64,000 nt of DNA, taken from NCBI RefSeq assembly GCF_006345805.1, contig NW_021833288.1, positions 1-64,000 of the forward strand. The letters are read 5' to 3'. Below, piece after piece: positions 1 to 54,290 of the stretch (positions within the stretch are counted from its first letter, which is position 1; each line of letters begins with the position of its first letter). The notes under the pieces were generated by a model. It ran no database searches and was not told the DNA's origin. It saw only the letters and a list, made by a program, of their open reading frames with translations. This DNA is from Octopus sinensis (Eukaryota). Both the position numbers and the translations under genes were made by a program.

Positions 1-854
1 GCATATCATCTTGTACCCGTAGTCTATTTCTATATTTTGTTTTTAGAAAATTCAGACACGACATCGCCATTTCACAGTGATAAGTAGTGGGGAATGCAAG
101 TATTGATTCCAATGCAGTTTTACTCAAAATGGGGAATTCTTTCGCCATCTGACACCTAACAATAAAAAGTAATTATTAATGAGAATACCAAAAATCTAAT
201 AATGAAGTACATTTGAAAATAATCTGAGCAGACTGATTACATTGAAGTTCAATCAGCTCTGCTGAAAATTGAGTTCCTGATATTCTTTAAATGAGGTCAA
301 GAAAGGTTGAACGATCCAGTTTGGAATTGGGTCTCAACAGGAAAATAATCATCAAATTTTGTCTTGAGATTTTCCAGATGTTTGATTATCAGACTTAGAA
401 GAACATTATCCGGTGGGTTGTGTCCGAGATGATATTCAAGCATTGGGAACATATGTTATTCCTTTTTTTATTTTCATTATCCACACATAATAACTTTTTT
501 TTAAAAGCCATTATTATTTGATTGACCTCGACAATTGATATATAAGACCTTTAAAATTAATATAAAAATTTTACCCTGCATTGACAAATTAAACTCATTT
601 AAATGTTAAAAAAATCGGCAAGATAATACATTTTCGATTAAAAGTAAAATCATCGAATTGATCGGCCCAATCATGCTGCATATATCACGCAAAAACAAAG
701 AGATCGCAGGAGAAAGTTCACAAATTCTCGAAAGAATTTTCCCCCTTCAATGTTTTTGATTTATACTTAATTGTACAATTAGTTTTAACTTTATTTTTCG
801 AAAATTCCTGGGGACCACTAAAAATTTTCTGGAGACCACGGTTGAGAACCGCTG
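1..854 (-). mobile_element. hAT (Buster/Charlie-type) DNA transposon remnant, runs off the left edge
   Basis: Minus strand gives LLDFW|CQMAKEFPILSKTALESILAFPTTYHCE (hAT C-terminal dimerisation motif). Terminal repeat GGTTGAGAACCGCTG ends at 854. Reading frame is broken. Confidence 0.8.
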
Positions 855-7500: not shown

Positions 7501-10500
7501 TGAACTGTTTGCTTATGTGTATAGTTATAAAAATGGAATCGGGGAACATTTCAAGTCGACAATATCAGGTTTTATTGAACAGTATTTAAAAACTGAAATT
7601 CATTTCCAAGAAAGTATTTTGTCTTAAAAATTTAGTTTAGATCAATATGACACATGTGTGTCTAAATTAAATGAGTTTTATAAAAACAGAGCCGATTTAG
7701 TGGCGGCAAATATATTTTCACATTGGAACGTGAAAAGCAAGAATGAACTGATGATAATTTTAATTGTTTTATTAGTCAAATAATTATTAGAATCGAATTT
7801 TTAAATACGACGTAGACATAATCCTTGATATTCAACAGACTCTCACAAAACTAACTACTCTTACCAGCCCAGCCAACTCGCCAGTGGCATTAAGAGCTCG
7901 GCAGGTTTTTTTTAATTTTGTCTATTTTGAAGTTACTTCTTGCAGCATCACTACCGTCATTGCAAACTAGAGTTAACCAAGTTGAGTCTTTCCTTCTTTC
8001 TGCTGTCAAATATGAAGATGAACGGTGCAAGGAACAATTGAAACTTTTAATAACATCTGAGACTTCGATTAACGACGTTCTCATAAATTTTTTCTTCCAT
8101 TCCGATCCTAAAATATGTAGGGCTGCTTCTGAGGTAGATTTATTTTTTAAATTCAGGTTTATGTACGACGAGCATACGCTTCTATACTAAAATTGGAACA
8201 TAGTTATATATCATCAGAACGTCCTATTCTAACTTTCTTTTATTCAATAGAATGGTATTGAAATATTCTTATTGACTTTTAGTCGAGAAAGTTCGAATAC
8301 GTGTGGGCATTTGGTGGCGTATCACTGTATAGAGGAACTTGAAAAGTAATTTAGTTTTATAAATTTCAGAGAATTTAAATTTCTTTTAATTTTTGTTAAA
8401 AAACGCTCAAAATTTCCTGCTTTCGGTAACGAAGGAAATAGAAAAAGAGTTCCATCCACTCTTATAATTGTTCTCAACTCCCCCGGATCTCCTCGCCTGT
8501 ATCAATTATGCCAAAATTTTGTTTATTATTTTTTCACATTTCTAGAAATTGGTAATAAAAAATATTATTAGAATTACATTCATTCTTCTTCCACAGAAGA
8601 ATGAGACATCCTATATTACTTTCCAATCTTCCCTTGACTTTGAAGAAGACACTCTATTGCGTAATCTTGACCCTGCTTTAGCGGATTTATTGGAAATTGA
8701 TCGTCTGGCAAATTATAATGTTGAAGCCATCAGTCAAAGACATCAAATGTATCTATACTTGGGAACTGTAAATATTACATTGAATTAATTTTGATAGGAA
8801 AAGGACTCTCCTGATTGCTGTAGATTCTTTTTGAGAGTTATTGTGGGTAATCACGGCCTTGTGACAACAGTAATTAATTATTCACATCTATAGGGAGCTT
8901 CTGCTGAATATTTGCGCCGTGAAGGAGAAACTGCACTTTATGAAGCAATTTCCGTTATTGAACATGGATTCACACATGAAATGGTGATATCTGTCAAATT
9001 TTATTTTTAGGCCAGTCGAACAGAGCTAAATCACATTTTTTTCAATTTTGTGCCCACGTTTACTGTTGACAATCCAAAAACAGTTTATAGTCTTTTATGT
9101 CATTCTTTAGTTGCGTAGAGTAATTCTTGCTATGATTTGGAAACAGTTTCCCCGCCTTAGTACTTTACGCATTGCTGTTGGAGAGATTAGACTCAAAGTC
9201 GAGTTTATTTTTTATTTCCAATATTTTTAAAGTTTTGGAGGACCTTCGGTATGTCCTGTCCGTATTTTCGTTTCAAATATAACAGGATTTATGTTGGATT
9301 TCTCAATGTACAGAGAAGAAATTGAGGATTGCAGGGTGCCTTCAATTTGCTATAAATTTTAGATTATTCTTCGTGCTTTTGACAAAGAATCTTCTATTCT
9401 GGATGGAAAACCTGTCAATATGGCTCATTTTTTTACAAGCGACAAACGTCGTTTTTTGGCACATAGAATTGGTGCTCTTTATGTCCACGATTGTCCTTTG
9501 CTTTTTCGTAAAACTCTTACACAATTATGGATTCCTTATTTGGATAAGATCTCCGAAAAGAATAACATTAAGAATTTTTTTTCATATCAAGAAATTGATA
9601 ACGGTGGCGAAGGAGTTGGGATTGTGGCTTGGAGGATGATGATATCTACTCCTGAGTATCCCAATGGAAGAGAATTGATTGTCGTTGCTAACGATATGAC
9701 AGTGAAACAAGGCTCTTTCTCTACAAAAGAAGATTTGTTTTTTACTGTCTGCTATTTTATTTGAAGTTTATAGAAAGTAATTAAACTCGCTTGTGAATTG
9801 GGAATTCCGTTAATTTATTTGGCAATGAATTCAGGAGCAAGAATTGGTTTAGCCGAAGAAATTAGAAATTCTCTTAAAATTGAGTGGAATTGTCCTGGTA
9901 GACCCGAAAAAGTTTTTTAGTTTTTGTTTATTAATAGGGATTTCAATATATGTATTTGTCAGAATCTGACTATCGAAATCTTCAGGAGCATGTAGTAGCA
10001 AATCCTTTGAAGGCTGAGGATGGCAGTATTCATTATGTAGTCAGTGACATAATCGGTATTTTATTTTTGCTTACTTTTAGGACAGGAAACTGGACTTGGA
10101 GTAGATAATTTGAGTGGATCTGCAATGATAGCATCTGCCATGTCTCAGGCTTATAATAAGATTGTTACAATAAGTCTGGTAAGCTGATTAGTTGTAAGGT
10201 CGTAGGTGATGTGCCGGACTGTTGGAATTGGAGCGTATTTGGCGAGATTAAGTCGGAGGATAATTCAAGTGGAGAATTCGAGTATAATTCTCACTGGAGC
10301 CGGTGCACTCAACCAGGTTTTTCTAATAATAAAAATAACATAGGTTCTTGGAAGGGATGTTTACAGTAGCAATAACCAACTAGGGGGAGTTCAAATTATG
10401 CACAAAAATGGAATTGCTCGGGATATTGTCACCAATGTCCAAAGTGGGATAGCCAGAATATTTAAACTGCTTTCATTTACTCCTGATGTATTTTATACCT

Positions 10501-11798
10501 TTTTACTTAAGGTAATTGGTCGTTCTCTTCCTATTCTGGACATTAATGATCCATGTGATCGTCTAGTTGAATATATTCCATGTTCTCAGCAGCCAAACAC
10601 TCGTTTAATGTTTACTGGGGGGGAAACCCCTAATGGCTGGGCATCGGGTTTTTTTGATGAAGATTCTTTCATTGAATCAATGGAAGAGTATGGAAAGACA
10701 GTCATTTCTGGGAGAGCTAGGTTATTTTTGATTTTTTATTTTAGACTTGGGGGAATTCCTGTGGGCGTTATTGGTGCTGAGACAGAGACAGTTCAGCTTC
10801 GCATTCCTGCTGATCCTGCCAATCCTAATTCTGAAGAACAAGTCATTCCTCAAGCAGGACAGATTCTTTTTCCAGATTCATCCTTCAAAATGGCAGAAGC
10901 CATCAGTGATTTTAACCGTGAGCAACTTCCTCTTTTTATTTTTCCGAATTGGCGTGGATTTTCTGGTGGAATGATGGGCAAGTTTTAATGTTATTATTTC
11001 AGACATGTATCATGAAGTTCTAAAGTTTGGAGCTTATATTGTTGATGAGTTATCTGTCTATCAACAATGTGTGTTTGTTTATATTCCTTTCCAAAGCGAA
11101 CTACGCGGAGGAGCCTGGGTTGTTGTCGATTCTGCCATTAACCCATCCCAAATGGAAATGTACGCAGATGAAACTGCAAGGTCTGTTTTTAAAACTATCT
11201 TAGGGGCGGAATATTGGAACCTGAAGGAATAGTTCAAATAAAATTTCGAAAAGCTGAACTTTTGCGTTGGATAAAATTATCTGAAAATAATGTTGACGAA
11301 TCTCATCTCTCTCATTACAAACGTGCTGCTACTTATTTTGCTTCTTTGCACGACACTCCTGCTAGAATGAAACGTTTCGGAGTTATCAAGGTTTTCAAGT
11401 TTTCTTATTTTTCAGGAAATAGTTAATTGGCGTGATAGTCGGCGATTCTTTTATTGGAGATTGAAGAGACGTATATCTACTTCATCAATTTTGAAAAAAC
11501 ATTCAAATCTTACACCTGATATTCTTGAAGAGCTTTTTATTAAAGATGGAAACTCAAAAGACCACTTCAGTGATGATAAACTTGTGGCAGTTTGGCTGGA
11601 ACGACAACTGAGAGATGATTCGTTTGTTTCTACTAATGTTACATTGCTGAATAAAGATTTTCAAGATGAATTAATTGAGTATTAAATTCCATTATAATAT
11701 TTTTTAGAAAATTTGAAAACCACTTTTTATTTGAAGATAAATTAAAACTTTTTTTAATTCTCTATCTTCTGAAACACTCGACAAAATTCGCCAATTAA
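4535..11798 (+). CDS. ACACA: Acetyl-CoA carboxylase (multi-domain BC-BCCP-CT), ~39 mini-introns
   Basis: [38 protein letters not shown] (BC); IEALKM (biotin carrier); [33 protein letters not shown] (CT). ATG at 4535. Stop at 11798 if the 11679-11707 intron is spliced, otherwise 11685. Confidence 0.95.
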
Positions 11799-17967: not shown

Positions 17968-20860
17968 TAGGGTTTTTAAAGCTATAATGTCGACCACAAA
18001 AGCTTTAGTTTTGACCTTTCTAGTATTAGTGTTGAAGCTCTAAGCATTTGCGTTTAAACCGCATATAATCAAGCATTAGCGTTTTTTAATGAAATCAAAA
18101 CAAAATTTTTTAAGAATCAAAGTTTGATTCATTTATTTGAGCATTTTGCGATAAAAAACAATGTTCAATAGTTATTTATTTTGTTACTAATGATATTTTT
18201 CAACTTTAATTTGGTGCTGACATTCTCAGAAATAACAAATGTTTCCATACAGAAAATATATCTCTATATGATTCAAACAGAGAATGAAGTGGTAAATATT
18301 CAAGATTAAATTCCAGAATGACTTAAGTTAACTCTTTATAATGATGCATCCAAACATTATTCATTATAAATAATAAATTCAGAATATCATATTTTTTTAG
18401 TTTAATTAGACATTTTTTGAAGGTTTCTTCATTTAGGGAAAATTTGAAAAGTTTATTGAACACGATTCCATATTTGTTCATTTCCTCAAAAACAAATACG
18501 TTTCTGTTTTCTAGATGTGGCACCGTCAAATAGGGCGATTTTTTAGACTTCGCTCTCCCTTTTTTCGCATCCGTACAGGCTGAAAATCCTACTTCATTGA
18601 GAAAAACTATACTTTTATCTTTGATTCCATTTTGTAAACGTCAAAAATTAGCTGCATATATTTTCCTTAGTTTAATGATAGTATTAATATTTTGTTTGCT
18701 GGCATTTTTAAAATTTATTAAATGCGTAGTGAAAGTCTTTAAGATATCTGTTAATAATACTTGGACTGATATTTATCTGCTATTTAGAAAACATAATGTC
18801 TTGATTTTGATGGTGTTAATAAATAATTATCACCCACCAAACTAATAAATAATGTATTGCTTGTGTAAATCATTCAATTTGGAAGAACAATCTCCACGAA
18901 GTTTGCTCTCAATATCTCCGAATTTTATCAATTGCTAAAGTATTTGGCTTACTGAGAAATGAGCCATATTTAGATAGTCACTTATTTTTAATTAGATTTT
19001 CCATTAATTGAACGTTCACCAATCAGTTTTTTGTTGAAAAGGATATTCTATTGTTTGTGTTCATATATAGCTCTTACTCTAACACATAATTACCCGAAAG
19101 AAGTCAATAATCGCGTATATGTAGTTTAAACGCTAATGCCTAAAGCAGTGGTTCTCAACCTTTTTTGTCCGCGGACCCCTTGTGAGTAAATGAAAAATTT
19201 CGCGGACCCCCTACATATTTATTAAGTTGTTTGTCAAAAAAATTTTACTTATCTAAAAACAAAATTTATTATTAAATCAATAGAGAAAATTAGTGAGAAG
19301 GTTGATATTGTTTTTTCGAGGCAATTTTTTCAATAAGAGGCTCGGTTGTCGACAAGCAAACCCTGATGTCATCTTCAATATTCAGTCTTGCGCGATGATT
19401 ATTTTTTATATTGAGAAGTGCTGAGAAGCCATGTTCGCATAAATATGTTGTCGGGAATATAAGCAACAAATTTAATGCATTTGCGCTTACGGAAGGATAA
19501 TGCTTACACATTTCGCACTCAAAATCTTGATAAAGCAAGTTTTTCATACAAATCTCTTGCGTTTGAATTATTGATCATGTCAATAAAAGCCTCTTCGATA
19601 TTTTCATCGACCAAACGTGGATCAACACTGAAGGTGTACGAATGAATTTCAAATCAATTTCGTTCAATTCTGGAAAGTATTTATTTACTTCTTGTTTTAG
19701 ATATGTTAAATGTGCATAAATAAGTTCGGTTATTTTTTTGATTTCAAATGCATCTATATTTACAGATTGTTCTTCAAAAGATTCAAACATAGTAAAATTA
19801 TTTAGTTTTACTTTTTCTTTCCACAGTGTTAACTTCATCAAAAAAGCACTAATAATTAATATGAAACAGTTAACAAACTTAATTTTATCCACAAAATCAA
19901 TTATTGTTTCATGTCTTCCCTGAAGCGATTTGTTGAGTGAATTTATACGAGAGAAGACATCTCTCAAGTAAGCAAGTTTAGATAGCCATGAACTATCCAT
20001 TAATTTCGAAATAAATTCCGATGATTTGGAATTGTTTTCGCGAATAAAATATTCAGATAATTCATTCCTCAAAGAAAAAACTCTGGCAAAAATGTTTCCC
20101 CGAGATAGCCATCTCACCTCAGTGTGGAATAACAAAGCCTTTCATCCTTTTCAAATTCTTCGCAAATAAGTCTGAAAATGCGCGATTTAAAGCACTCTTT
20201 TTAATATAATTATGATATGTACGACATCATCGAGAACATATCTTAAATCTGAAGGTAATGTTTTTGCAGCAAGTGCATATCGATGTAGCATACAATGCAT
20301 ATGTTTCGTTTCCTGGTTAGCAAGTCTAACTTGGTCTCTAAAGCCAGAATGAAAGCCAAGCATTGCTGGAGCTCCATCGGTTGTGCAACAACATACATTA
20401 TTCCAAGATAACCCAACACTGTCAAAAAACATAGAAATTGCTTGAAAAAATATCTTCTCCTTTAGTGGTCGATTCAAGCGAATAGGAAAATAAAAATTCC
20501 TCTTTAAAATCTCCGTCATAGACATAACGAGCAAATATTATTAATTGAGCACAGTTCGCTACATCGGTGGATTCATCAACTTGTATAGCGAAATTTTGAT
20601 GGCATGAAGTTTTTTGTTCTACCACCTGAAATATAATATATATATGATATATTAATTATGATATATTAATTATTATTAAAAATATATTAATATATTATAT
20701 TATTATAATTAATTATATTTATCTTATATTTAAATATGATTCATTAAATAGAAACATTTAAATAAAGTTTCAGAAAAATCTCGCGGACCCAGGTTGAGAA
20801 CCACTGGCCTAAAGCTTCAAGGCTAGTGCTTTCGCTTTCGACCCTAAGACTCAAAAACCC
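17968..20860 (-). mobile_element. Old TIR element, probably Mutator (MULE)-like, whose right TIR is split by a hAT
   Basis: GGGTTTTT...GTCGA...TTGAAGCTCTAAGCATTTGCGTTTAAACCGCATATA (17970-18070) is the inverted match of 19115-19145 joined to 20815-20860. Interior is decayed coding-like sequence; TSD not resolved. Confidence 0.5.
19146..20806 (-). mobile_element. hAT (Charlie/ZBED5-like) transposon, 5'-deleted and frameshifted
   Basis: TIRs CAGTGGTTCTCAACC / GGTTGAGAACCACTG; perfect 8-bp TSD GCCTAAAG (19138-19145, 20807-20814). Motifs QVDESTD, TTDGAPAM, HCMLHR, TEVRWLSRG, FPTTYLCE. Confidence 0.95.
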
Positions 20861-24779: not shown

Positions 24780-26016
<1,237 letters not shown>

Positions 26017-26929
26017 TAATTGATTTAATAATTCATCCTAATAATTTAATTGTTGGTATTAAATACACTAATTCGAATTAGTTTTATTTTTTTAAACCAA
26101 AAAAGAACTTCAACCACATAGGGTGTGTATCAAACCATTATTTTTTGATTTTTTTATTATAGCATTATAAAAATTAAATCAGACTAATAAATGCTTTAGA
26201 TTAGCGGTTCTGAACTGTGTCCCCGAAAATTTTAGGAATTTTGATAAAAATATATTAAAGTTAAAACTAATTGTGTAATTAAGTATAAACCAAAAACATT
26301 GAAATTAATCTGATTTGATTAGCGTGGTTTACCACGATTTAAACCATCCTCAGGTCTGAAAAAAAAAATAATTGCAAATCTTTAACAGAATTGTTTTCCC
26401 TGTAACATTTTAATCATCAAATGGCTGAAAATGCTTTTTCCCGTTGTGATAATTAATTTTTTATTTTTCTGACTATTAAAATATAATAAAATTAAGTTGA
26501 TTTTGGAAAGGACAAACAATTTGATTTTCAAAGAATTAAATTTTTAAATTCTTTGGGTTTTCGTGCATTTTAAAGAATAAAAGTTTTTTGTTACTTTATC
26601 GTATCAGCGCGGATGAGTGAGGAAGATATTTATAGTTTTGATTGCTGGCTGAACCAGCTGTTTCAGGAATGACTAACAACAACCTTTTCTATCAAATTAC
26701 TATTAAATAACGAAATAAGATCCTCATTATATTTTACCCTTCATGGAATAAAACAAAAATTCGAATTAAATTTTCCGCAGTTATCAATATCAAAATAAAG
26801 TATAGCTCGACATCTAGATCTAATTTTGTATAAATTAAAGAAACTAAATTAAGCCTGAGGCTAATTTTAAATTTAAAAAAATCAAAAAAAAAATTTGTTA
26901 AAAAATATTTAAAATTTCAATCGGAAAAC

Positions 26930-27530
26930 AGATCAATTTGGTTTGTGGATGAATCAAACTTTAATCTCCATATTAGCAGGACAGAAGAAAGATCGCTAAA
27001 AGTAACAAGATGCACTACTCTAGTTGCTACATCAAAAGGATCAAATATGCTTATAATTTGATGTATCTCAAATCTAGGACTCATCTATTATAAAATCCGA
27101 AGTGAAGCTCTTGAAAAGGATAGGCTTGTCATTCGATGAAAACTTGTATGAAGGAGTGTGCATATTAAATATGGTGGTCCCGTTATTATGGTGTTGGACA
27201 ATGCGCTAGCTTACAGTGGTATCAAATCAGTTTTTTGATTAAAAGAATTTAGAGATTTTCATATTCCTCGTCTCACTAGTCAAACCTTGTCGTAAATTTA
27301 TAGTCAAAAGTATAAGCTCAGGTGAAGACTTTTATCTCTTTTCTAAAAAACCAAATTTTATTCTAACAAGAAGGTTTGTCATTTAAAGAGTATTGAACAC
27401 GGATACTTGAAAAAAATAATTGTGAATAAAATAAAAATAATTACATTAAAGATTTTGTAAGCTTTATTTTTGGAATACAAGGAAATATTTATGAGACACT
27501 AAATATGGTTAACATTAAATTTTTAACACA
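26930..27530 (+). mobile_element. Decayed IS630/Tc1 (DDE_3) transposase remnant
   Basis: VDESNFNLHISRT...SKGSN...CISNLGLIYY...VIMVLDNA with stops and frameshifts. Confidence 0.7.
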
Positions 27531-28042
27531 AAATTCATTTGGTGTTAATCTCATTTATTTTGCTATTAATCCCATATTGTTTGATATTAATATCACTTAG
27601 TCTTCTATTGATTTCACTTAGTTTTCTGCTAGTCACACTTAGTTTGTTCCACTTAGTCTGATTTAATCCAATTTGGAATGGGAAATGGTATAGAATACAC
27701 ATTACATTAAAAATACATAACCAATAGAGTAACAATGCTAAGTATCGGATAACTCCAAATATTATGAGTCATACTATTAATTAGTATGACCAAAAATTTC
27801 TTAAAAATAGTCATGCTATTTGGATGGTCGTATTATTTAGAGTGTTCAATTTTCAATAATCTTACTAAATTTTATTTGTTCAAGTTTGCCCAACGTTGTT
27901 TTTCTTCCATCACATTCGAACAACTTCTCTCACCAGTCGAAGAACACGCGCGTAGCTTTCGATTTCATTAGCGTCATTCGTAACCCAAATCGGTGCAGAG
28001 ACGGGAAAAGATTTTTGGTCATACTATTTGGATAGTCATACA

Positions 28043-31000
28043 GGTAATCTCCAAGTTTCGACCAAGTATAAATCTTGACGTATAAGCAATAGATTTTAAT
28101 TATTTTTTGATTTTTTATTAATTTAAGTTAATTTTAATGGGATTGTCTATTAGATTGTCTGGATTTTATATTTTTTTAAAAAATAAAAATTAAGCCGAAA
28201 AAACATATTTGTTAACTATTAGGAGCAGAAATTCTTGGAATATCTTCTCTTTATCAACTAACGAGGTCCGCCACGTGAATTCGTCCAAATAAGATTCAAA
28301 TAACGATCGCGATGTTCCTAAAATAAATTTACGAGTTTTACCAAATTGCCTTTTTAGCTTTCTCTTCGCTCGCATCCATGTGTTCTCAATATTTTGAGTA
28401 TGGATAGAGCGGTCCAAAGGGTGAACAAAATTTTCGGAGTGATTTATCACAGAACGTGAATAAATCCCTCCTCCAATGTGCGCAATCCCACTATAGGCTG
28501 CCCAACCATCAGTAATGGGTCCCGGGAAGTACGCGTCGAACGATAACTTCATTGAGTGTTTCCGCTGTTCTGTCTAAAGCAGGGGTCACCAAACTTTTTG
28601 CACTCGCGGGCCGGATTGACCCCAACACAATGAACGCGGGCCGGAGCACGTGCATAGGATTATAATTTTACTAGAAATTCATAAGTCTGTTTTTTACAAT
28701 AAAAACTAATTTAAACAAAAATAAAGTAAACAAAAATTTTAATGAGAGCTATGGAACTGTGATCTTTTTTTGATAAGTTCATCAATATTTGGTTTTAAAT
28801 TGCTGCATCCTATCATGAGAATTGATTTTAAGTGTCCGTCAGTCAATCTTGCACGATGGGCAGACTTAACATATTTCATCCTCGAAAACGTTTGCTCACA
28901 TTGGTAAGTTGTGCCAATATAGAAATCATCTTTATCGCAAAATTCTTTAGTCTCGGAAACTCATCATCCTTGAGATATTCGTAGAACTCAGCGAGTTTGG
29001 TCCGTCTGTGACAATCTTTGAGCTGTTCATTTGATTGTAAGTCAATAACTTCTAATTGTAATTCATGTTGAACATTTTCAACATTACAAGAAAATGGATT
29101 TTCGAACAAAATTATATCGCTTTCAATTTTGTCAAGTTCAGAAAACTTATGTAAAAAATGATGTTTTAATTCTTTGATAATTCCAATTTGGAAAGTAATG
29201 TCGATCTCATTACAGTTTGCCTCACAAAAACTTTTAAAACAAGAAAAGTGTGAAAACTGACGTACTCCAAGTTGTGACTCGAATAACATCAATTTTTGTC
29301 GAAATGCTTTAATTATCCTGTAGAAATCACAAATTAAGTTTTCCTTTCCTTGTAATTTCAGATTTAGCTCATTCATGTGAGTTGTAACATCAACCAAAAA
29401 TGATAATTTTGATAGCCAAGCAAGATCTGATAATTCGGGATAATAGTTATTTTTACTGGTTAGAAAAATATCAATCTCACTTCGGAGTTTATAAAATCTA
29501 TTTAATACATTACCACAGCTAAGCCATCTAACTGCAGTGTAATATGGTAAGTCAAAATATTCAGATCCAAAATCGTCAAGTAAAACTTTAAACTGACGGT
29601 GATTAAGTGAGCTCCCTCGAACAAAGTTTATTATGCGAATAACTGGATTCAACACACATGAAATATTAGAGCCTTCGCACATAGTGCGTGCTGATGAAGG
29701 ATGCAATGAATGAACAAAGTGTTTGAAATATGTAATTCCTCCAATTTATTAGTTATTTGCCCAACTAGACCCTTTTTAGAACCAGCCATATTCTTTGCCC
29801 CGTCAATCGTAACACAACTCAGTTTCTCCCATTCAAGGTTATAGTCACTTATAGTTTGTTCCAATTCATCAAAAATATCTTTTCCAGTGGTTGTTCCATG
29901 AATAGAACAAACAGATGCCAGTTCTTCAGTTATGGAAATATTCTCATCAACTCCACGAATAAAAATAAGAAGTTGCGATGTTCCGAAATGTCAACTGACT
30001 CATCCAATGCAAGAGAATACCACAACATATTACTTGTCTTTTCACAAATTTGTAAATATATATTTTTTCCAAGCTCTTCAGTTCTCCGTGATACAGAACT
30101 CGCCGACAAACTTATTCCATCAAATAAGGAAGAATTTAGTGGGCACAAACAATTAACTGCTTCAATAATGCAATTTTTGATATACATCCCATCACTAAAG
30201 GGTTTCCCGTGTTGTGAAATAATTTTCGTTATCTCGTATCCAGCTCTTGTTACATTTTCATTATTTTCAAAATTTTTTTTTAAGGCCTTGTTGAATTTGT
30301 AAAGTGCGTTTCAGTGATTCAACTTTATCCTCACGTAGCTTTCCAGTGTACTTGGAATATATCGGAGCATGATTCGTTTCATAATGACGTCGAATGTTAT
30401 ACTCCTTCATAACAGAGAGATGTTCGTGGCATATTAACAATAAGCTTTCTGCTTTAATTCATCTTTCGCAAAAAAATACTTCAATTCCCATAATTTATTG
30501 AATACACGGCATTCGCGGTCAACCTTTCTTTTCATATTAGACATAGCAACAAAGAAAATTTAACGTTAATGCTGATAAGTTTTTTTTCGAATTAAATCTT
30601 GCAAAATAGTTTTATTTAAGTTAATTTAATTAAGGTATTAATTGAATATCTCGAAATAGTGCGCGGCCCGGATAAAATGTTGTCGCGGGCCGGATCCGGC
30701 CCGCGGGCCGTAGTTTGGTGACGTCTGGTCTAAAGATAATGGAAAAAAGAACTGCACGTCTTCAAAAAACAATTTCTCTTGTCCTCCCTGTCTATTCCTC
30801 CACCCAATACCCAATGGCCTGGTCGCCAATGACCTCGATGGTACTTTCTGTGAAAAAATTTGCACTCGTCGAATTCCACTATCGACTCTTCTAAAAATTC
30901 CAATCTGTAATCGTATTTTGCGAAATTTCTAGTTCGTACGAGATGAGATTTCCTGGGTAATTTAATGCCCACATATACGTAAGCATCAAAATTTTCGCTA

Positions 31001-31460
31001 ACGGTAAATGACTTCCTAAAATTAGTTTAAGGATGACTTACTGGAAAAGCAGCTGTTCGTTCTTATACTTCGAGAAGTATTGCATTGAATACATATCTAA
31101 ATTGCGTTGTCCACGTTTCTTTTTGCCTTAGATAAACGGCAGCGTCTCTATTTGTGAGAATATAGGTCTTACTTTACAGCGAACGCATTTCATTGTGCTA
31201 GAGATCAACCGCCTCTCTGCGCACCAAATTACACACTCTTCTATATTATCGCCGAAGAGCCTGTATAGAGACAATAACCGGTTATATTCCTGCATTATTT
31301 GCTCATTAGACTTGATTGCAGCCGCATCAACAATAGACAAACCCATTTAAAATTAGACAATCCCATTAAAATTAATTTAAATTAATAAAAAATAAAAAAA
31401 TAATTAAAATCTATTGCTTATACGTCGAGATTTATACTTGGTCAAAACTTGGAGATTACC
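28043..31460 (-). mobile_element. Merlin (IS1016/ISXO2-like) DNA transposon with an intron-containing transposase
   Basis: 107-bp TIRs beginning GGTAATCTCCAAGTTT (28043-28149, 31354-31460); 8-bp TSD GTCATACA (28035-28042, 31461-31468). Motifs VEFDEC.F.RKYHRG...WVLGG, TDGWAAY, NHSENFV, HTQNIENTW. Confidence 0.93.
28580..30727 (-). mobile_element. hAT (SPIN/GTF2IRD2-like) transposon nested in the Merlin element
   Basis: TIRs CAGGGGTCACCAAAC / GTTTGGTGACGTCTG; perfect TSD GTCTAAAG (28572-28579, 30728-30735). Near full-length transposase from MSNMKRKVDRECRVF through LALDES, TIDGAKNM, HCILHQ, AVRWLSCG; several frameshifts. Confidence 0.95.
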
Positions 31461-31479
31461 GTCATACAATTAAATAGTA

Positions 31480-33770: not shown

Positions 33771-34127
33771 GAAAATTTTTATAAATGATAAAAAAAACTC
33801 TACAAATTCTTTATGAAAAGACTCTAAATGGATGTTCTAACATACAGAATACATTCAGTTAATTACAATCAAAAAACTTTGTAAAGGATGCTAGTTAAAT
33901 CAGGTACGGGTTAAGTACTGTATAATATGTTTAATTTCTTCTGTCTTTTTTCAAGTGAGATACAAAAAATCAACAAACTCTAAAGATTTTTTACAAATAA
34001 AAATTAAAGTTATTATTTAACTCCAAATAAAATTTGATTATTATTGCATATTAATAAAAGAATTCTTAAAAAATATTAATAACAAAGAAGCTCAAAATTA
34101 TCAAAAAAGTAAATAAGATTAACGTGT

Positions 34128-35430
34128 CTACCACATGAATCTCTGAGAACTGCCGAAATCTTTACTGTAAAATGGAAAATACAAAAAAATAATAATTGTA
34201 ACGAAATTAATAAAAACAAGAACAAAAACGTTTATATAAAGCAATATATTTCTATTCTCTGCAGCACGAAATTCTCTAGTCAAAAGTACAGCAGGAATAA
34301 CAAAATAGCGTAATTCAAACAATTTATTAGGAACAAAACTCATGGCAGTACAAAAGAAAAATAAACACTTCCAAAAAAATGATTTATGAACAAGTGCCGA
34401 AGATACTAAATAAATAGCCATTAAATAAATTGGGGTATAAAGATACGGCTGAAATAAAAACAATTTGAAAAAATATCGCCATATGTAAAATAAATAGTGA
34501 CGATGATCCGATATTAGATAAATATGTTCAAAAGTGAAAAATCGAATAACAAAAATGATTGAAATACTAATTAAAATGCTTTTTAAAGAAAAAATCGAAA
34601 ATGATGAGTAAGGAATGGAATATAGATTAAGACAAAACATATATGCCAGAAAGTAAAGCATTTGGGCTAAATGAAAAGTGGGTTGATGTGCAGAACGATC
34701 CCCAATTACAAGAGCTCCATTTATAAGGAAAAATAATACGGTAAGAGCCCCGGTAATTACAAATGGCCAATCTCTCAACAGCAGCTTTCTTAACGTAAAA
34801 CGGGAATTGCAATAAGGTAACAAATAGCAGTAAAAAACCCACACAATGTTAGACTGGCGAATAAAAACACTAAAAACGGCCACAAAAAATATGGTTAAAC
34901 TATATAAAACAGTTTTCTGAAATATAAATCATAATAAAATTACTTTGTATATTTCATGGATACGTAAAAAAAGTAGAAGGAGTACCGAAAGCATAGAAAG
35001 TTGATCCGTATAGTAGAGAAAGCTAAAGAAATAAATTGGAGGTATGAGCCATTGAGTCAGAGCAGAAATCACAGAATTAGACTAGAATTATAAAGTTACA
35101 CAAAACCGATTTGTCAAGCAAATAAATAAGAATAAGATTAATTATAGACACTACAGAGTTGAAAAGTCGTAATAATGAAACAGAACAGGGAAAACCAGTC
35201 AGTTTAGAAATAAAAGCGGGAATTATATACAGCCCTGGAGGAGTCGTTATATTTGGATCATACTTTAAAATTTAAGGCAGAAAATATACATATGTGAAGT
35301 TTCCAGAGCAATAATATTGCGTCTGTTTTATGTGAAATATTTCATCCATATAACTATCTTTTTGTTTTGAACAAAACTGGTGCAAAATAATGACATTTAA
35401 AGCAGTCGTAACTAACAAGACCCAAATCAT
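34128..35430 (-). CDS. ALG10: Dol-P-Glc alpha-1,2-glucosyltransferase ALG10 (DIE2), copy 1
   Basis: YMDEIFHIKQTQYYC, YDPNITTPPGLY, LYYTD, RQSNIVW, GDRSAH, DHRHY, ELRYF, QRFMW*; three mini-introns. Confidence 0.93.
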
Positions 35431-35559
35431 ATTTTAATTGAAAAATTAACTTCATTTATTTTAATAAAATAATATAGAAAGAGTTAGTGATTAAATTTGA
35501 TTAAGTCATTAATTCTCAACTCCTTTATTATTAATAAGCACACCGAAAATCAACGTTAG

Positions 35560-36180
35560 CGAAGTTATCTCGCTTTTACCACTCTCTCTTGGATATGTTT
35601 TGTTAACCGCTTCCAGTTCTTTGTTTTCTTAATAGTTCTTTTAGGAGTTCAAGGTCGTATGCTGATTTCAGCCTTTTTACAATCAAGGTTAGTTTAAGAG
35701 CATAGAAGAGTTAAGAGCGTAATCCGTGGTTTTCTCCTGAAGGTCGATCCAGGATGAGGAGCCTAGAGTTGTTCCATTCTTAAAATATGACAGAATAAGC
35801 CCATCTGCTACTTCTCATTTCTCCATCTAAGGGGTGTGTATTGTAGAGATATTTATTTGAGATGTGCTTTGGCCATAAAATTCTTAAAATGTATTCGAGC
35901 TATATTCTATGATAGGACTTCGGACTTTTCATTTAATGGAGTACCCAGGTAGAGGAGTTGTACAGTAGAACCGAAAGCATAGAAAGTTGGTCAGAATATA
36001 TTGTATATATTGTATAATTTACTGGTGTCGTAAAATCTATATCATCTGCGTATAAAACTTCTCTTTTATTCATGAGGATAATTGATCCGTTACGAACTTT
36101 TCGAAAGATTGTCGGCAAATATACTATGAATAAAACCGGCGATAAAACGTCTCATTCGGGACGCCCTTGTTTGTTCTAAA
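35560..36180 (-). mobile_element. Internally deleted RTE-like LINE remnant
   Basis: EVLYADDIDF and LFCHILRME resemble IVYADDVDF and FFGHILRMD of the 63025-64000 element. Repeated at about 50520-51140. Confidence 0.7.
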
Positions 36181-36669
36181 TAATTTAGATTTCTGCTTTC
36201 CCAACTGAATAAATAGTTGAGTGGAGAGAAGTAGATAAAGAATTATTCGAATTCAATCGTTTTCGAGTAGTGGTGCTAATATTTGTATTATCTTGACTAT
36301 GTGCTTAAAAGATATTTTTAAATACTTATTTAACAAAAAATATTCAAAATATCTAAGTGGTGCGTGAGATCAGTCAAAAAGCATTTTATTTAAATTTTGG
36401 ATTATTCGAACGTTTATTTACTTTTTGACATTCTACTATTTTCCATGCTAAATGATAATAGTTTCAATAAATGGAACAATTTCAAATGATATTTCCAGCT
36501 AAATGGAACAATGTTAATAAATTGAAAATATTTTTTTTGTTTTAATTTTTACATAATTTAGATTAGATTAATTATTACTTATTTAAAATTTTCTTTTTTA
36601 GAACGGTACGTAAAAGCAGAACACAATTATAATGGTCTATTAAAAATCACGTATTTTTGATTTTTATAA

Positions 36670-37605
36670 CACAGATGGAGATTGGCAACGTTTAGTTATC
36701 AAAAAACCTTGCTGAAAAAAGAGCTAATTTATTAAGTGATGAACATAGTGGAACTTTATCAATAAGATAATATTGTCTTCAATTTTTAAAAAGATTTATT
36801 GAAAAAAGCAAAAATTTAATCGTTCCTGATTTTTGTTGTAATTGTATTGTCATATACAAGGAAAAGTACCGCCGGCATTAGCTTTTAAACTCATGAAATT
36901 TTAATAAATGATTTTTTTCCAGTCTCTGAAATTTATTAACGCTTTTCGATTAAGTTTGAAGCTATTATGAAATGGTATAGTTGCGAATGTTTTCCATTAG
37001 TGATCATTTTAAGGTTGTTTCAAGGGAATGAAGTTTGTTTAGTTTTATAAATTGTCTATTTTTTGTTTAGAAACAACAATTTCAGCGTACAAAACGTAAA
37101 TTATGCCGACTGATATTTAATTCCCGCTACTTTTCAGTTTTTGTTATCTCAAAGGCATAATCTAGAAAAGATCAATGTGGAGTACTCTTCTCTAGTGGAG
37201 TACTTTCGAGCTAAACTCGCCCTTACGAAAAAACCCGTGCCTGTAAACCTTGAAAGACTTTAAAGCAATCAGGCACTTCACTAAGAAGAATGTTTCTAGA
37301 ATATTCTTAAAGAAAAAAGAATAGTGAATATTGAAGAAGTGAATCAGTTTAATGTCAAGTTACAATACTTAACAGGCATGTTTCAGCAGATTGCCCGAAT
37401 TGTATCAAAACAAGAAGAACAAATCAATCGTTTGTGTCATGTGATTGACCGGAAATAGAATTGACAAGAATTTAGAAGAGACGGAGAACTATGTAGAACA
37501 GGGATATTGGATGTTGAATAAGTATTTAAATTTTATCTCAAAAAGTCAGTAACTGTTCTTCAAGATTATTTTATCCTATGTATATGTTTATTTCTGACTT
37601 AGTGA
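36670..37605 (+). pseudogene. STX5: Decayed syntaxin-5-like (Qa-SNARE) gene, copy 1
   Basis: GMFQQIARIVSKQEEQIN(R)|IDKNLEETENYVEQG...KYLNFISKSQ*LFFKII resembles the Syx5 SNARE motif and TM entry. In-frame stops and a broken splice donor. Confidence 0.6.
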
Positions 37606-37947
37606 AATAAACAAATTTAATATTAAATAATAATTTTTAATTTGTGAAGCTGTTAATGGATTATCGCATCGCTTTGGAGTCATCAACGTGTAAAAATCTA
37701 ATTATTCGATTTAGATTTAACGTTCTATTTGAAATAATGTTTCTAAAGTTATTTTGGTGAAGTTGGTCATGGTTGCTTGGACATGTTCCTTTGACCGCTC
37801 CTATGAGTACCCATGAAGCTCAGTTCTCGGGCTACTTTTCCTATCTTAGCATTCCAATATATGTAAAGTAGATAGCTCGTGGATATTTCCCTAAGAGTTG
37901 TGGACAGTGAACTGTAAAAGCCATTCAGTTTCATTGGATTTTTAGAT

Positions 37948-38869
37948 CAGGGATGTTATACTCATTTCGCTTCGAAGGCCGCATTTTAAAATAATTTCCC
38001 TGTAAGGGCCGAATTTATAACAATTTTTCATTTTAATGAAAACTAAAAATAAAGAAATTTAAATATGTAATCGAAATCTTTTAATCGTGCTTAGAGCTAC
38101 TTCCAAATGATTGACATTTTTTTCCGATACAATTTTTGATATATCGGGCTCAATTATTCGTATAGTCCCGACTTCAACTAGAGCCGATAAATTTTCATCT
38201 GTGAGGCGTGTTCTACTAACAATTTTTGTTTCAATTTTTGTTTCATATACTAACAATTTCATATTTTGTTAATTTCATACAATTTTTGTTAATTTCATAT
38301 AATTAAAAAAATTGGCGTCATGAAGATGCGTAAAGAAAGAAGGTTTTCTAACTTCATCTAATAATCCTATGATCTATGATTGGAATTTTAATTCCTTTTT
38401 AAATTATATTCTTTGGTATAGCGATTAACTGGTTACATTTCAAACACTATTTTTGCATCAATTGTAGTACAAAAATAAAGTTACCATTTTTATGAAACAC
38501 TCTTTTCATTCTTCAATAGTTTTATTAGTCTAACATGAAAAAGATCCGAGGAATTAGCACTTAGAGGACTTGAAAACAGGAACCACGTAAATTTCAACTC
38601 CAGTTTTGCTCTGGGAGATTTTTCTTAGCATCCTCAACGAATTCGTGTCAATACTCTGCCCATGCAGGTCCTCCAGCGGATTGCTGAGCTCCAGCCCGAA
38701 TGCCAATTTGATGCCAAATCGTCTGGTTTTTTTTGAGTTTGTCAATTAAACAACCCCTTTTGTCTGTTTGATACCAGTCTCTCAATCCATATATCAGTAG
38801 AGGCTAAATTAATCTACTAAACATTACTGTTGCACATGAGGCTTGCGAGCCCCGTGTTTGACACCTTTG
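37948..38869 (-). mobile_element. Old non-autonomous hAT (SPIN-like) element, copy 1
   Basis: Decayed TIRs CAGGGATGT... / GTTTGACACCTTTG; TSD TTTTAGAT / TTTTAGAC. C-terminal transposase fragment RTRLTDENL...IEPDISKIV. Confidence 0.75.
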
Positions 38870-39296
38870 TTTTAGACGCTTTTGGAGATGTAGATGAATA
38901 TACATTTATAATTGTAGATTTAGATCCAACTTCCAGTTGAATTACACAAACTTTGTCATTTACTTTTCATATTCTTTTGATATATTTCCTTAGTTTGATA
39001 TCCACAGAAATGCTCATCCCGTAGAGATGGCAGTCCAATAAAAGCAGAATAAGGTCGTGGGCAGCATTTTTTTAGTTAAGTCCTTCTTTGACTTTGATCT
39101 GTTGGAGGAAAAAGATGTTCAGGTCTTGGAAAAGTGACCTCCTTTTCACCGAAATGTTGAAAAAGTTCAGCGTAAACAGAGAGTTTGAAAAAGTAAAAAA
39201 ACATTTAAATCATAATATTTCTTTGATTAAAATCATATTTTTATTTATAATTTATAGATTAAACAAATTTTTAAATAAAATAATGTATTCACCGTT

Positions 39297-40326
39297 ATGT
39301 ATTTGATTGGATCATTGTGGGAACTCATATACAAGGTCGCAAGCTATGCATTTTCTATTTTTAATCGAACCTGGAGGTATTTAACATGGCCGTCGGTACT
39401 AGAATTATGCTCAAAACCTATGAGTGGACTCGTTTTATCTCAACTCGGTAAAATGAATCAATAAATAATCGCTAGAAATACAGATCAGCAATAACAATTT
39501 ATTTAATTTAATAAATTCTGAGGATTGTTCAGAACAAATTATTGAATCGGCAATTTCTGATTTCTGTTTACAACTGCAGATTAATCATGTTCAGAATAAA
39601 CGGTTTGTTTTATTGATATTTCAAATTAATAAAAATAGAGCCTTAAGTATGCTGGAATATTACATTAAATTCATTTCCAGATATAATAAATTGTCAAATT
39701 TGATTTTGAAGAAGACCAAAAAATGTGTCAATTCCTTAGATGAATCAGATTACAAGATTTTATCAAAGGTGTAAACTGATATCAAAATTTTAGATATTTG
39801 TTATTTTAATTGGAAGGGATCCTGAAGGTCCGGACTCCTCTGATTGGGAAATGATAGGTTTCCAGGGTCGCAATCCAATGACCGACTTTAGAGGAATGGG
39901 CACACTTGGTTTAGAATGTTTCGAGTTTTATTTATTATTTTATAAAATAGTCATTTTGTTTCTTTTTACGAGGACGATGCCAGGAAACTACTTTTCAACT
40001 CTCAAGATAATGTTATTGGGTATCAAATTAATTTTTAATGCTATTTAGACTTCCTTTGGCCATTTTCTTGATAAATGTAGTCAATTTGAATTATCAAATG
40101 TTTATTGATGGTACTTTCAAGGGGTATTATTTACCGAATATGGAAAAACTGGATATAAATTTATTTTATGATACGTGCTGTGAGGTTTCATTATTCACTT
40201 TTAGGTATAATGTTCATGGAAGTATCCGAAGCATGGATAAACAGCAACCCTGAAAGTTTTATGGATTTTGTTCAATTTTTAACAAGTTTTTCTGATGCGA
40301 AAAAATCAGCTCTAGCCAAGATATAG
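39297..40326 (+). CDS. ELMOD: ELMO-domain protein (Arl/Arf GAP), copy 1
   Basis: DWEMIGFQGRNPMTDFRGMGTLGL signature; open frame after removing mini-introns. Confidence 0.88.
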
Positions 40327-40759
40327 TTTATTTAATAAGATTTGGTTTTAAATATTATTTTAAATTTCCAATATTTATTAGACTCATTTAGCTCAAAAAT
40401 TCAATATTTAACACTTACCAATTAAATCTTTTTCTACTTGGTTTGGGTTCACATGATCAGTAAGTTTTCAAGAATATGCCAAATTTCCTGATAACTTTGA
40501 TTAAAACGAATGCAGAAGAAATAAGTATTTTGACAATTTGTGTCTATATAAAGACTTCTTATTATAAATTAACGTTTTTAGTTACTAATAACTAATTAAT
40601 CTGTATAATTCTCCTCCTTTTTGAACCGCTGCACTGGATCTGCGTATTCTCCTCCTCTAACACTTCATATGACACATGAGACACATCTTCCGGCTTTGTG
40701 TCTATATAGATAATTAATTATTTGAACTTATTTGTGTGCACAACCTTCTTTTTTAGAGA

Positions 40760-43468
40760 TTAAAGAAACCAGAATAGTATTTTATAAAACAAAAATAAAA
40801 ATACATTTTCATTAACACCCGAAAAAGTAGACCTTCTCTTTGAACTTTGACAACAAAGTTCGACCAAAAAATCAATATGCTTTCTACAAAAGAATTTTTT
40901 ATTTGAATCCTTCACAAGCCGCCCGTCAAAATGATAATTGCAATATGAAGTCGTGCACAACGAACAGCAAAATGAAGCTCGAACACCACAGATGTCACAG
41001 AAATGCCAAGGACATAACCAAATTCCTTGACGATTCTCTGATTTCATTTTAACACATCGATTATGATATCGCCCTCCGCACTCATAACAGGCAATGTAAT
41101 TATTTGTGGCAGGTATTTTACACTTAAAACAAATTCGTTCATTTTTCTTTGTTTTCTTAACATCATTATTTGTTCCTTTATCAGGCAGACCGAGAGAACC
41201 CGTGCATTTATCTGAACCGCAGTTACACACTAGCCGATCAGTGCCAATATATTTAAAATTATAATTAAAAGTTAGTTCAGTATCTAAAAATAAAAAAACA
41301 TGTATTTACAAACTGGCTGGAATGTCTTTCAAAGCAAAAAACCCGACTCGATATTCTCCGTGGACATTCCAGATTTGAGTAGTCAAATTAGGATCGCAAC
41401 TATGATTTATAAATCTGGATAGATTCCCTTTGTATTTAGCATCAATAACACTATTTCATATTTTTATTAATCAACCGGTTTTTTCCAATGTCCATAAAAT
41501 AGAAATTCTTATCGTCGATTATGTGAAGATGCTTGAGACGTTTATTCACCTCTTCTTCGTTTATAATTTCCCCCACATATTCGTTAATAAACTCCCCCTT
41601 TGATAATATTATAAAGAAAAACTTTTTTTAAATCTTCTTTTACTCTCAGTCCAAACCCAGTACTGGTCGTTCGGAAACACTCTTGTTTGGGGTAGCGACG
41701 ACGAGTAAACTGCTGATTCTTACATTTTTTGCCATTTGGACACAACAATGGATGGCATTCGTACATGAGATAGCGATTAAAGCATTTCTCTGTGGAGCAT
41801 AACTCTTCCTCCGTACAATCACACTGAGGCAATTTAGAAATATTTATCTTGGTAGGCTTGACACTCCCAAAATATTTATTTGTCTATAATCACAGAGTAA
41901 ATGTATTTAAATACTTTAATTTTTTCAAAGTCTAGAGTAGTTGATTCTCTAAAGTAATTCACATCAATGTTGTTTCGCCTCTGTCCATTCAGCAGCGGCA
42001 TTTTCGGCGATAGAAATTGCTAAGAAATTAAATAATGTAAATACCTTCCAAATATTTAATATCTAAGGTGTTTCGACCCAATTTTACATTCATGTCATCC
42101 CCGATATGAAATTTAAAAACTCTAAAAATTACCAAAAAATGTTTAAACGTTGATTTATTAGCCCAGGCATGTTTTGTCAGCAAAAAACATAACAATAAAC
42201 TCCCCTCGTTTATGTTTACTTTGGGCAGTATTTACAGGTATCAACTCGGGGATGCAAATTTCAGCTGGCCACCACCTAATAATAAGTAAATTACATTAAC
42301 TAACCGATAACTCCCGAGCTTCATCCATACAATATCGCCATATAACGGCCCACACTCCAGATATGCAATCATTACATCGCCACTGTTCACTCTGATACGG
42401 TTCTTGCTTCATGTTGAGGCACTTCATATGGAAGGATGCAGAACAAGTGTCACAGCACAGGATCTTTCCTCCTAAAAATTTATATTCCCAAATCACCTTC
42501 CGAACAGATGAAACAAAAGCTAATGTTCTGTTTAACAGATTTCAAATGGTCAGGGCAAATAATATATTCGCTAGAAAATAAACTAGACCCAGCAGGGAGA
42601 CAATAATAGCTTCCATGATATGTATTTGGACACATTAAACAGGATATAAGTTTCACTAATTCTACTAAAAAATAATAAAACTTTTTGAATGTTCCTTTGG
42701 ATTCTGACGGCGTAGAGCAAAACAAGTGACACAGTAATGCCTTGGACAGTAAAATGTCTTGTGTCGACCATTACATGCATCTCCTCGGAACACAGTTAAG
42801 CAATTTGAGTCATAGTGAAGATTGCAACCTGAATAACCACACATTCTAAGACAAATATTATTCTTCCTACAGCTAAAACATGCTTCTTTATTGATAGCTA
42901 AATCATAAAATAACAGAACCCCACATTTAACGTAGTATAGGCATCCTTCGCAGTAGTAATGACTTTTATACAAAACAAGACATTTAGAATGAAACATTTT
43001 TTTGCATTGCCCCTCACATGCTTGAAACTTTGATTGGTTTACAGAATCTTCGATCAATTTTTTGTCACATTCATAACAATATTCTTGGAGTTCAGATTCC
43101 ACATTTTTCAGTTTAGTTAAATCTCCAATTGTTGATTTTATGTGTGTAAATTGCAGTCTCCGTTCAACTTTCTTGTCACAGCTTTGGACTAGCTTTTCGA
43201 TTTTTTTCTAAATTGGAGTTTATTTTAGATTTCAACCTCAAGACTGGATATTGAAAAACTACTTACACTATCTTTATCTACTAATTCTGACGATGGTGAA
43301 GAAGAAAAAACAGAATCCGAAGCTGGACGTTGTTTTCCCAATATATGTTCTATTTAAAAGATGGCTTAATCGGAAAAAAAGAATTTGTATTGCAATTATC
43401 AAAATATAATTTAATAGTGTAAGATTTTTAAAATGTATAAATTGATACTAACCAGGTACAACATCCAT
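40760..43468 (-). pseudogene. NSD: NSD/Mes-4 H3K36 methyltransferase, copy 1 (frameshifted in this sequence)
   Basis: Same gene as 57208-59914 but with indels near 42351 (+1), 42170 (-2) and 41979 (-2), and loss of the terminal exon near 40805. Could be sequencing error. Confidence 0.7.
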
Positions 43469-49089: not shown

Positions 49090-50392
49090 CTACCACATGA
49101 ATCTCTGAGAACTGCCGAAATCTTTACTGTAAAATGGAAAATACAAAAAAATGATAATTGTAACGAAATTAATAAAAATAAGAACAAAAACGTTTATATA
49201 AAGCAATATATTTCTATTCTCTGCAGCACGAAATTCTCTAGTCAAAAGTACAGCAGGAATAACAAAATAACGTAATTCAAACAATTTATTAGGAACAAAA
49301 CTCATGGCAGTACAAAAGAAAAATAAACACTTCCAAAAAAATGATTTATGAACAAGTGCCGAAGATACTAAATAAATAGCCATTAAATAAACTGGGGTAT
49401 AAAGATACTGCTGAAATAAAAACAATTTAAAAAAATATCGCCAAATGTAAAATACATAGTGACGATGATCCGATATTAGATAAATATGTTCAAAAGTGAA
49501 AAATCGAATAACAAAAATGATTGAAATACTAATTAAAATGCTTTTTAAAGAAAAAATCGAAAATGATGAGTAAGGAATGGAATATAGATTAAGACAAAAC
49601 ATATATGCCAGAAAGTAAAGCATTTGGGCTAAATGAAAAGTGGGTTGATGTGCAGAACGATCCCCAATTACAAGAGCTCCATTTATAAGAAAAAATAATA
49701 CGGTGAGAGCTCCGGTAATTACAAATGGCCAATCTCTCAACAGCAGCTTTCTTAACGTAAAACGGGAATTGCAATAAGGTAACAAATAGCAGTAAAAAAC
49801 CCACACAATGTTAGACTGGCGAATAAAAACACTAAAAACGGCCACAAAAAATATGGTTAAACTATATAAAACAGTTTTCTGAAATATAAATCATAATAAA
49901 ATTACTTTGTATATTTCATGGATACGTAAAAAAAGTAGAAGGAGTACCGAAAGCATAGAAAGTTGATCCGTATAGTAGAGAAAGCTAAAGAAATAAATTG
50001 GAGGTATAAGCCATTGAGTCAGAGCAGAAATCACAGAATTAGACTAAAATTGTAAAGTTACACAAAACCGATTTGTCAAGCAAATAAATAAGAATAAGAT
50101 TAATTATAGATACTACAGAGTTGAAAAGTCGTAATAATGAAACAGAACAGGGAAAACCGGTCAGTTTAGAAATAAAAGCGGGAATTATGTACAGCCCTGG
50201 GGGAGTCGTTATATTTGGATCATACTTTAAAATTTAAGGCAGAAAATATACATATGTGAAGTTTCCAGAGCAATAATATTGCGTCTGTTTTATGTGAAAT
50301 ATTTCATCCATATAACTATCTTTTTGTTTTGAACAAAACTGCTGCAAAATAATAACATTTAAAGCAGACGTAACTAACAAGACCCAAATCAT
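49090..50392 (-). CDS. ALG10: ALG10 glucosyltransferase, copy 2
   Basis: Intact; four amino-acid differences from copy 1 in the last exon (L/V, P/Q, I/V, V/I in the ORF track). Confidence 0.93.
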
Positions 50393-53950: not shown

Positions 53951-54290
53951 TAAACAAATTTAATATTAAATAATAATTTTTAATTTGTGAAGCTGTTAAT
54001 GGATTATCGCATCGCTTTGGAGTCATCAACGTGTAAAAATCTAATTATTCGATTTAGATTTAACGTTCTATTTGAAATAATGTTTCTAAAGTTATTTTGG
54101 TGAAGTTGGTCATGGTTGCTTGGACATGTTCCTTTGACCGCTCCTATGAGTACCCATGAAGCTCAGTTCTCGGGCTACTTTTCCTATCTTAGCATTCCAA
54201 TATATGTAAAGTAGATAGCTCGTGGATATTTCCCTAAGAGTTGTGGACAGTGAACTGTAAAAGCCATTCAGTTTCATTGGATTTTTAGAT

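Follow-up and report, generated by a model that had tools for sequence, protein, structure and literature searches.

Five short inserts in a Merlin transposon family, likely spliced and likely gained in a genome with introns of about 27–30 nt

Introduction

Merlin is the superfamily of DNA transposons with IS1595/ISXO2-like transposases, and Feschotte 2004 is said to be the original paper on it. Its members are defined by terminal inverted repeats (TIRs) of 24–462 bp ending in 5'-GG-3' and by target site duplications (TSDs) of 8–9 bp (Lopes et al., 2021, PMC8101967); the words intron and exon are absent from the main text of that paper. IS1595-type transposases are also encoded by ciliates with tiny introns (10.1101/2021.12.14.471607). 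In plants, transposase introns and their gain have been described in grass mariners and in one CACTA clade, with numbers that vary by family, and intron loss has been proposed to ease the horizontal transfer of plant transposases (PMC4158355). Domesticated transposon genes of mammals have likewise gained introns, and their intronless ancestors provide a comparable zero-intron baseline (PMC3369469, PMC3257199). Introns as short as those treated here are known only from dicyemids and myxobolids, and the splice signals of dicyemids are reduced to GTa and AG (PMC13644364). The dicyemid median intron is 27 bp (PMC6543705), in a genome of 67.5 Mb with 49% repeats (PMC6736024). The short introns of dicyemids and myxobolids keep ancestral positions in host genes (PMC13644364, PMC6543705, PMC6736024), and words starting with 'transpos' are absent from the main text of the two dicyemid genome papers.

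The window analysed here is a 64,000-nt stretch of an octopus assembly. Its Merlin element, assigned to family A, resembles the superfamily in its GG-ended TIRs, 8-bp TSD, PF12762 domain, DDE triad and length of about 330 aa, and differs from it in the five mini-introns of the family. As in plant CACTA and mariner-like transposases, introns differ in number among families and gains are found; unlike there, gain appears to dominate, three superfamilies are involved, the introns are of 23–33 nt and the carrier is likely an animal (compare PMC4158355). The introns share a length of about 27 nt, AT-richness and weak signals with those of dicyemids and myxobolids, whereas the papers on the latter cover host genes and shrinkage and the present introns seem to be new ones in transposases (PMC13644364, PMC6543705, PMC6736024). 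In contrast to the domesticated genes of mammals, the elements stayed mobile and multicopy. Introners, by definition, spread near-identical introns through unrelated genes; the 22 introns compared here show no such likeness to one another.

An earlier note on this DNA had put the element forward as its best candidate for an undescribed system, which is overstated, as transposase introns and their gain are already in print (PMC4158355). For recurrent gain at about 27 nt, no printed report was found. Neither was any report of introns in Merlin or of mini-introns in dicyemid transposons, in a search that took in neither the original Merlin paper nor most subscription journals nor supplements. The feature is broader than first described.

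Experimental procedures

A consensus of Merlin family A was built from 30 aligned loci. Introns were called with a spliced aligner whose sole input was a profile built from six outside homologues (P0001–P0006) and which was blind to earlier intron calls. Outside homologues may derive from spliced RNA, and the absence of introns was taken from genomic loci alone. Independent Merlin A insertions numbered 31 after removal of eight loci with flanks common to another locus. Exons 1, 3, 5 and 6 of Merlin A lie in one genomic frame, so that only exons 2 and 4 discriminate between spliced and unspliced reading. The hAT sample comprised 47 loci, of which 23 were rerun with an outside profile; L128–L130 and L132 were left out because their decay was too advanced for scoring. 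Intron calls of 48–55 nt in L144, L209, L212 and L224 were set aside as artefacts of alignment.

Results

Origin of the window

The assembly (G000, 2.72 Gb) consists of very large contigs, C1–C30, and about 13,500 others. In ten-kb samples (15 unplaced, one borderline), the content of microsatellites and the usage of 4-mers separated a chromosome-like class from a window-like one. Two kinds of 18S sequence, 74–84% alike in conserved blocks, were found: one of 2.5–2.65 kb, mostly on chromosomes, and one that is 1,667 nt long and lies on an unplaced contig (C1618:6101-7767). We take 30 chromosomes and a 2.6-kb 18S to fit an octopod, and the 1,667-nt form presumably fits dicyemids by its length. 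The GAPDH gene of the window served as a control for intron size and origin. Its introns have a median of 29 nt and all seven stand at positions common to the GAPDH gene on C12, whose introns measure kilobases; by this comparison they are shrunken ancestral introns. Because of the two 18S kinds, the GAPDH mini-introns at ancestral positions and the split in composition, the window is likely part of the compact genome of a second animal. We infer that this animal is a dicyemid-like parasite in the cephalopod, dicyemid-like introns (median of about 27 nt, ancestral animal positions) being seen in one gene, GAPDH, and myxobolids having equally short introns. A search with GAPDH brought up no named dicyemid sequence. 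The transposase introns described below are somewhat shorter than the seven of GAPDH (p 0.04).

Contigs of the apparent co-assembled mini-intron eukaryote reach 1.3 Mb (C9759, C8698 and C12433 are examples). Elsewhere in the window, a near-identical duplicate block (about 34100-43200 and 49100-59700) carries ALG10 and a gene with cysteine-rich domains, which we take to be NSD-like. A gene with a biotin-carboxylase domain, presumably acetyl-CoA carboxylase, is split into many short frames at 4900-11700.

The Merlin element and its inserts

Coordinates are collected in Table 1. Without the nested hAT, which makes up 2,148 bases of its span, the Merlin copy measures about 1.26 kb. It has 107-nt TIRs that start with GG, an 8-bp TSD and a DDE_Tnp_IS1595 domain with the triad: PF12762 was detected on the last exons at 27.2 bits, just above the cut-off of 27, and in family A the EIDE, ITDG and NIEN blocks have their acidic residues in register with those of the homologues. 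Flanks match or nearly match in 10 of 11 two-ended copies of the family. The window copy is dead: exon 2 contains a stop, about 103 bp spanning part of exon 3 and of intron 3 are deleted, and there are frameshifts besides the hAT insertion; some single-base indels in its homopolymer runs may be assembly errors. Neither the hAT nor the dead state had been mentioned before. The hAT inserted at the site of intron 4, the acceptor of which falls within the hAT's target duplication. We assume this hAT to be Buster/SPIN-like, a label that also draws on the names of database matches.

Table 1. Features of the window, with positions counted from its first base
Feature	Position	Strand	Details
hAT fragment (third hAT), family hAT5	1..746	-	33-nt intron at 156-188
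hAT (second), family hAT2, internally deleted	19146..20806	-	8-bp TSD; 30-nt intron at 19849-19878
Host GAPDH gene	24780..26018	+	seven introns of 58, 29, 29, 27, 34, 28 and 30 nt; size/origin control
Dead copy of Merlin family A (DNA transposon, IS1595/ISXO2-type)	28043..31460	-	TIRs and TSD; PF12762
Merlin 5' TIR	31354..31460	-	107 nt, starts GG, 96% complementary to other end
Merlin 3' TIR	28043..28149	-	107-nt arm, pairs with 31354..31460
Merlin TSD, 8 bp	31461..31468	.	identical 8-mer at 28035-28042
Merlin exon 1	31173..31346	-	from ATG, 58 codons
Merlin intron 1	31148..31172	-	25 nt, phase 0; spliced profile alignment
Merlin intron 2	31016..31041	-	26 nt, phase 1; spliced profile alignment
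Merlin intron 3, remnant	30891..30899	-	acceptor end; spliced profile alignment
Merlin intron 4	30730..30752	-	25 nt in family, 23 nt in window copy; spliced profile alignment
Nested hAT (family intronless, young)	28580..30727	-	8-bp TSD at 30728-30735 and 28572-28579
Merlin intron 5	28318..28341	-	24 nt, phase 1, in frame, no stop; spliced profile alignment
Merlin exon 6	28190..28317	-	to stop codon

A DNA search of the element's own genome, in which 40 candidates were scored, gave 86 matches, every one of them on an unplaced contig, and copies differ from the consensus by 2–8%. The consensus contains five GT–AG inserts of 25, 26, 26, 25 and 24 nt, a density of about 5 introns per kb. All five were recovered by the spliced profile alignment. 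At intron 3 the aligner picked 38 nt for the consensus but 26 nt for copy L011; in other copies this intron is of 26 nt and phase 1, or of 38 nt with a later acceptor. Removal of the inserts leaves a DDE transposase of 327 aa with its DDE blocks in place, three homologues having 328 aa. No fully intact copy was present among the loci examined, the best, L011, having one stop. Intron 5 is a multiple of three and free of stops, so that it was called from homology alone and would add eight residues if read through. A GT..AG placement of the right length arose in 5–9% of 20,000 shuffles of each insert, and the product over the five is about 1e-6.

The three introns first reported for this element correspond to introns 1, 2 and 5. 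Their coordinates were confirmed by the independent spliced alignment, and the alignment to outside homologues recovered the same junction peptides; by this analysis they are confirmed as GT–AG inserts whose removal restores a conserved frame. With GT..AG ends and a conserved frame regained on removal, the inserts of Merlin A were likely spliced as introns.

Retention of either of two stop-free introns of the window, Merlin intron 5 and the 30-nt intron of hAT2, would give a longer and not a truncated protein. Among Merlin A copies L002–L028, at least five TIR subtypes (TIR bases 9–24) track residues in the cysteine-rich N-terminal region (exon 2), which possibly reflects joint change of the protein and its binding site, or else linkage.

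Splice sites and selection across insertions

GT and AG were both intact in 22/23, 19/21, 17/19, 17/20 and 19/21 of the insertions covering introns 1 to 5, respectively. Each insert recurs in 17–22 independent insertions with both ends intact. For variants seen in at least 3 of the 31 insertions, N/S in the spliced frame was 0.37 (p 1e-4); for private variants it was 0.81, near neutral. The ratio for shared variants fits, as expected, a Merlin A lineage that would have amplified while making protein. Exon 4, which is in frame only without introns 3 and 4, showed 2/297 nonsynonymous against 5/69 synonymous changes (p 0.003). No purifying signal was found in exons 1 and 2 (N/S 0.95 and 1.37). 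Exon 2 had 10/219 nonsynonymous and 2/60 synonymous changes in the spliced frame, against 6/219 and 6/51 in the unspliced frame (p 0.013, more synonymous), a frame that has stops. The amino-acid variants of this exon track the TIR subtypes, which may account for its missing constraint or may reflect linkage only.

Mini-introns in other elements

The proposal, made on the basis of the window, that several families of DNA transposons have introns of host size was borne out, and the pattern reaches a third superfamily, Tc1-type. Full copies of hAT2 have a second intron, of 26–31 nt. Both hAT2 positions are occupied in hAT3, whose proteins are 50% identical and which has one more intron; at the common positions the intron sequences have diverged, and one intron, 31 nt long in hAT2, measures 26 nt in both hAT2b and hAT3 without loss of the reading frame. 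Family hAT4 has four positions distinct from those of hAT2/hAT3, and hAT5 at least two others, the intron-bearing hATs forming three separate lineages in the tree. Mini-introns were found in none of eight chromosomal hATs. Two window hATs had been credited with introns, left unspecified; two hATs of the window, the hAT5 fragment and the hAT2 copy, do belong to intron-bearing families, and the nested hAT has none.

Of the 40 Tc1-type loci sampled, 36 are unplaced, and these form 15 clusters. In a single cluster the frame is broken by introns of 25 and 29 nt, which two further copies also have; no mini-introns were found in 14 of the 15, in a search biased toward uninterrupted genes, with some loci partial and contigs classified in part. 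Together, the three hAT lineages and the one Tc1-type family add 11 positions to the five of Merlin A. The 16 distinct positions carry introns of 23–33 nt (median 27) with 68–93% AT; G precedes the intron at 9/16 positions and follows it at 10/16, against a background of 20%. The absence of mini-introns from retroelements, stated earlier, agrees with two reverse-transcriptase frames of the window, of 577 and 234 aa, which are continuous. In protein collections, the spliced product of hAT2 or hAT4 was matched only by automated-looking chimeric models that match the same elements; an automated gene model reads through the 30-nt hAT2 intron.

The intron-bearing Tc1-type family (L195, L227, L228) has long inverted ends made of 42-bp repeats. 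Two decayed Tc1-type transposase remnants lie in the window (18158-18988 and 26715-27513).

Discussion

We consider it probable that the window holds a dead copy of Merlin A, a family whose five inserts of 24–26 nt were likely spliced, and likely gained in a genome with introns of about 27–30 nt. Gain of the transposase introns inside this genome is the best reading of the comparisons made. It is favoured over shrinkage because related genomic Merlin and hAT elements lack introns and because the sister family of hAT4 (L134/L151, about 60% identical) has two introns in common with it and an exact empty site at a third. In 21 other Merlin loci no intron was called, several of the chromosomal ones spanning only the last two positions; these intronless loci include full-length chromosomal elements and family B on window-like contigs. 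Merlin A, Merlin B and the full-length chromosomal elements fall in one clade (support 91/98). Merlin A has no close sister there (branch 0.88), and therefore its introns may have been gained in an earlier host. The proposed relation of intron number to family age is loose, intronless Merlin B standing on an equally long branch (0.98).

That the introns are adaptive, with splicing raising expression, allowing escape from the silencing of intronless transcripts or limiting the transposase to some cells, we regard as rather unlikely. Repeated gains in three superfamilies and the intron density of Merlin A speak for it, as does the silencing of intronless mobile elements in mammals (PMC8770142). 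Shared transversions are rarer in the intron interiors of Merlin A (0/172) than at synonymous sites (11/190; p 0.001; transitions do not differ), and no exact intron loss occurs among the 31 insertions; but constraint inside a 25-nt intron would follow from the need to splice once the intron is there. Against an adaptive role, the same contigs hold intronless families that multiplied recently, and a member of one inserted into this Merlin copy. The nested hAT has a single 619-residue frame in its consensus and in 3/20 copies, and its copies are 97–99.5% alike to the one in the window. Mini-introns are also absent from one more hAT family and from Merlin B and C, whose compared copies are 98–100% alike, and from all but one of the Tc1-type clusters. 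The suggestion that splicing is needed for expression or for escape from silencing is not supported in view of these families, several of which are young, and the adaptive reading does not hold as a general rule.

It is unlikely that the introns arrived with elements from earlier hosts with introns of normal size and were then shortened as the host's own were. Host introns did shrink in place, as GAPDH indicates, the history of Merlin A is open to such a course for want of a close relative, and multi-exon transposases are known from CACTA (PMC4158355) and from the five-exon hAT BuT2. No related genomic element compared, however, has an intron at these positions, and four or five lineages have wholly different ones. 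The empty site in a sister family of the same genome needs a gain, or a gain and an exact loss, and this host would presumably have had to splice a long intron until it had become short. Of the two origins suggested earlier, de novo gain is thus the one that the intronless genomic relatives and the empty site speak for, and shrinkage the one that they speak against. A donor was found for none of the intronless families, the best outside identity being 42–49% for two intronless hATs.

It is very improbable that the inserts are no introns at all and stem, in decayed copies, from chance insertion or from faulty assembly: the contigs are rich in single-base indels, and introns such as the fifth of Merlin and the 30-nt one of hAT2 can be read through in frame, as the automated model does for the latter, but the same inserts recur in 17–22 independent insertions each, their GT..AG ends are hardly due to chance, selection is frame-specific and positions are common to families 50% identical.

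Under the preferred reading of gain, short AT-rich insertions would be tolerated in a transposase gene when by chance they present GT..AG at host length, because the host spliceosome would ask for little beyond this. Tolerated inserts would become fixed in the active lineage and pile up passively with residence time. Intronless families would probably be later arrivals, as their young copies suggest, and the introns would testify to residence and not to adaptation. The inserted DNA was not traced to a source by tests for tandem duplication or introner families. Tandem duplication was suggested by two Merlin junctions, but 1/32 tests fell under 0.05 (combined p 0.39), and this origin was rejected. 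An introner origin was not supported, no similarity being found among 22 introns compared; one recent intron gave 13 matches, at least 11 of them at hAT4 loci. For recent transfer between host and parasite no evidence was found: unplaced hATs 69–89% identical to chromosomal ones sit on host-like contigs, and window-like hAT families are only 30–45% identical to chromosomal ones.

More tentatively, a lineage with minimal splice signals could be a hotspot of intron gain, in which long-resident transposases fill with introns of 25–30 nt, up to a density like that of the host, and become locked into their host, with no horizontal escape, since other animals could not splice introns so short. If so, the length of residence could be read from the intron count, and the origin of new introns from sister families that have empty sites.

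Intron gains in animals are rarely clear and their mechanism is open; here there are 16 candidate gains for which the zero state is known from intronless ancestors, many copies and sister families. The lineage was hitherto known only for shrinking introns, and the present data suggest that spliceosomes adapted to tiny introns may also ease gain. They also point to a testable barrier to the horizontal transfer of transposons. Hundreds of unplaced contigs of the assembly may belong to the second organism, whose transposons will be annotated wrongly wherever a tool sets a minimum intron length. On chromosomal contig C7, a Merlin-derived frame of 352 residues (L065, G000:C7:25421500-25424800) is intact and intronless, has its first two catalytic aspartates changed and is possibly a domesticated gene.
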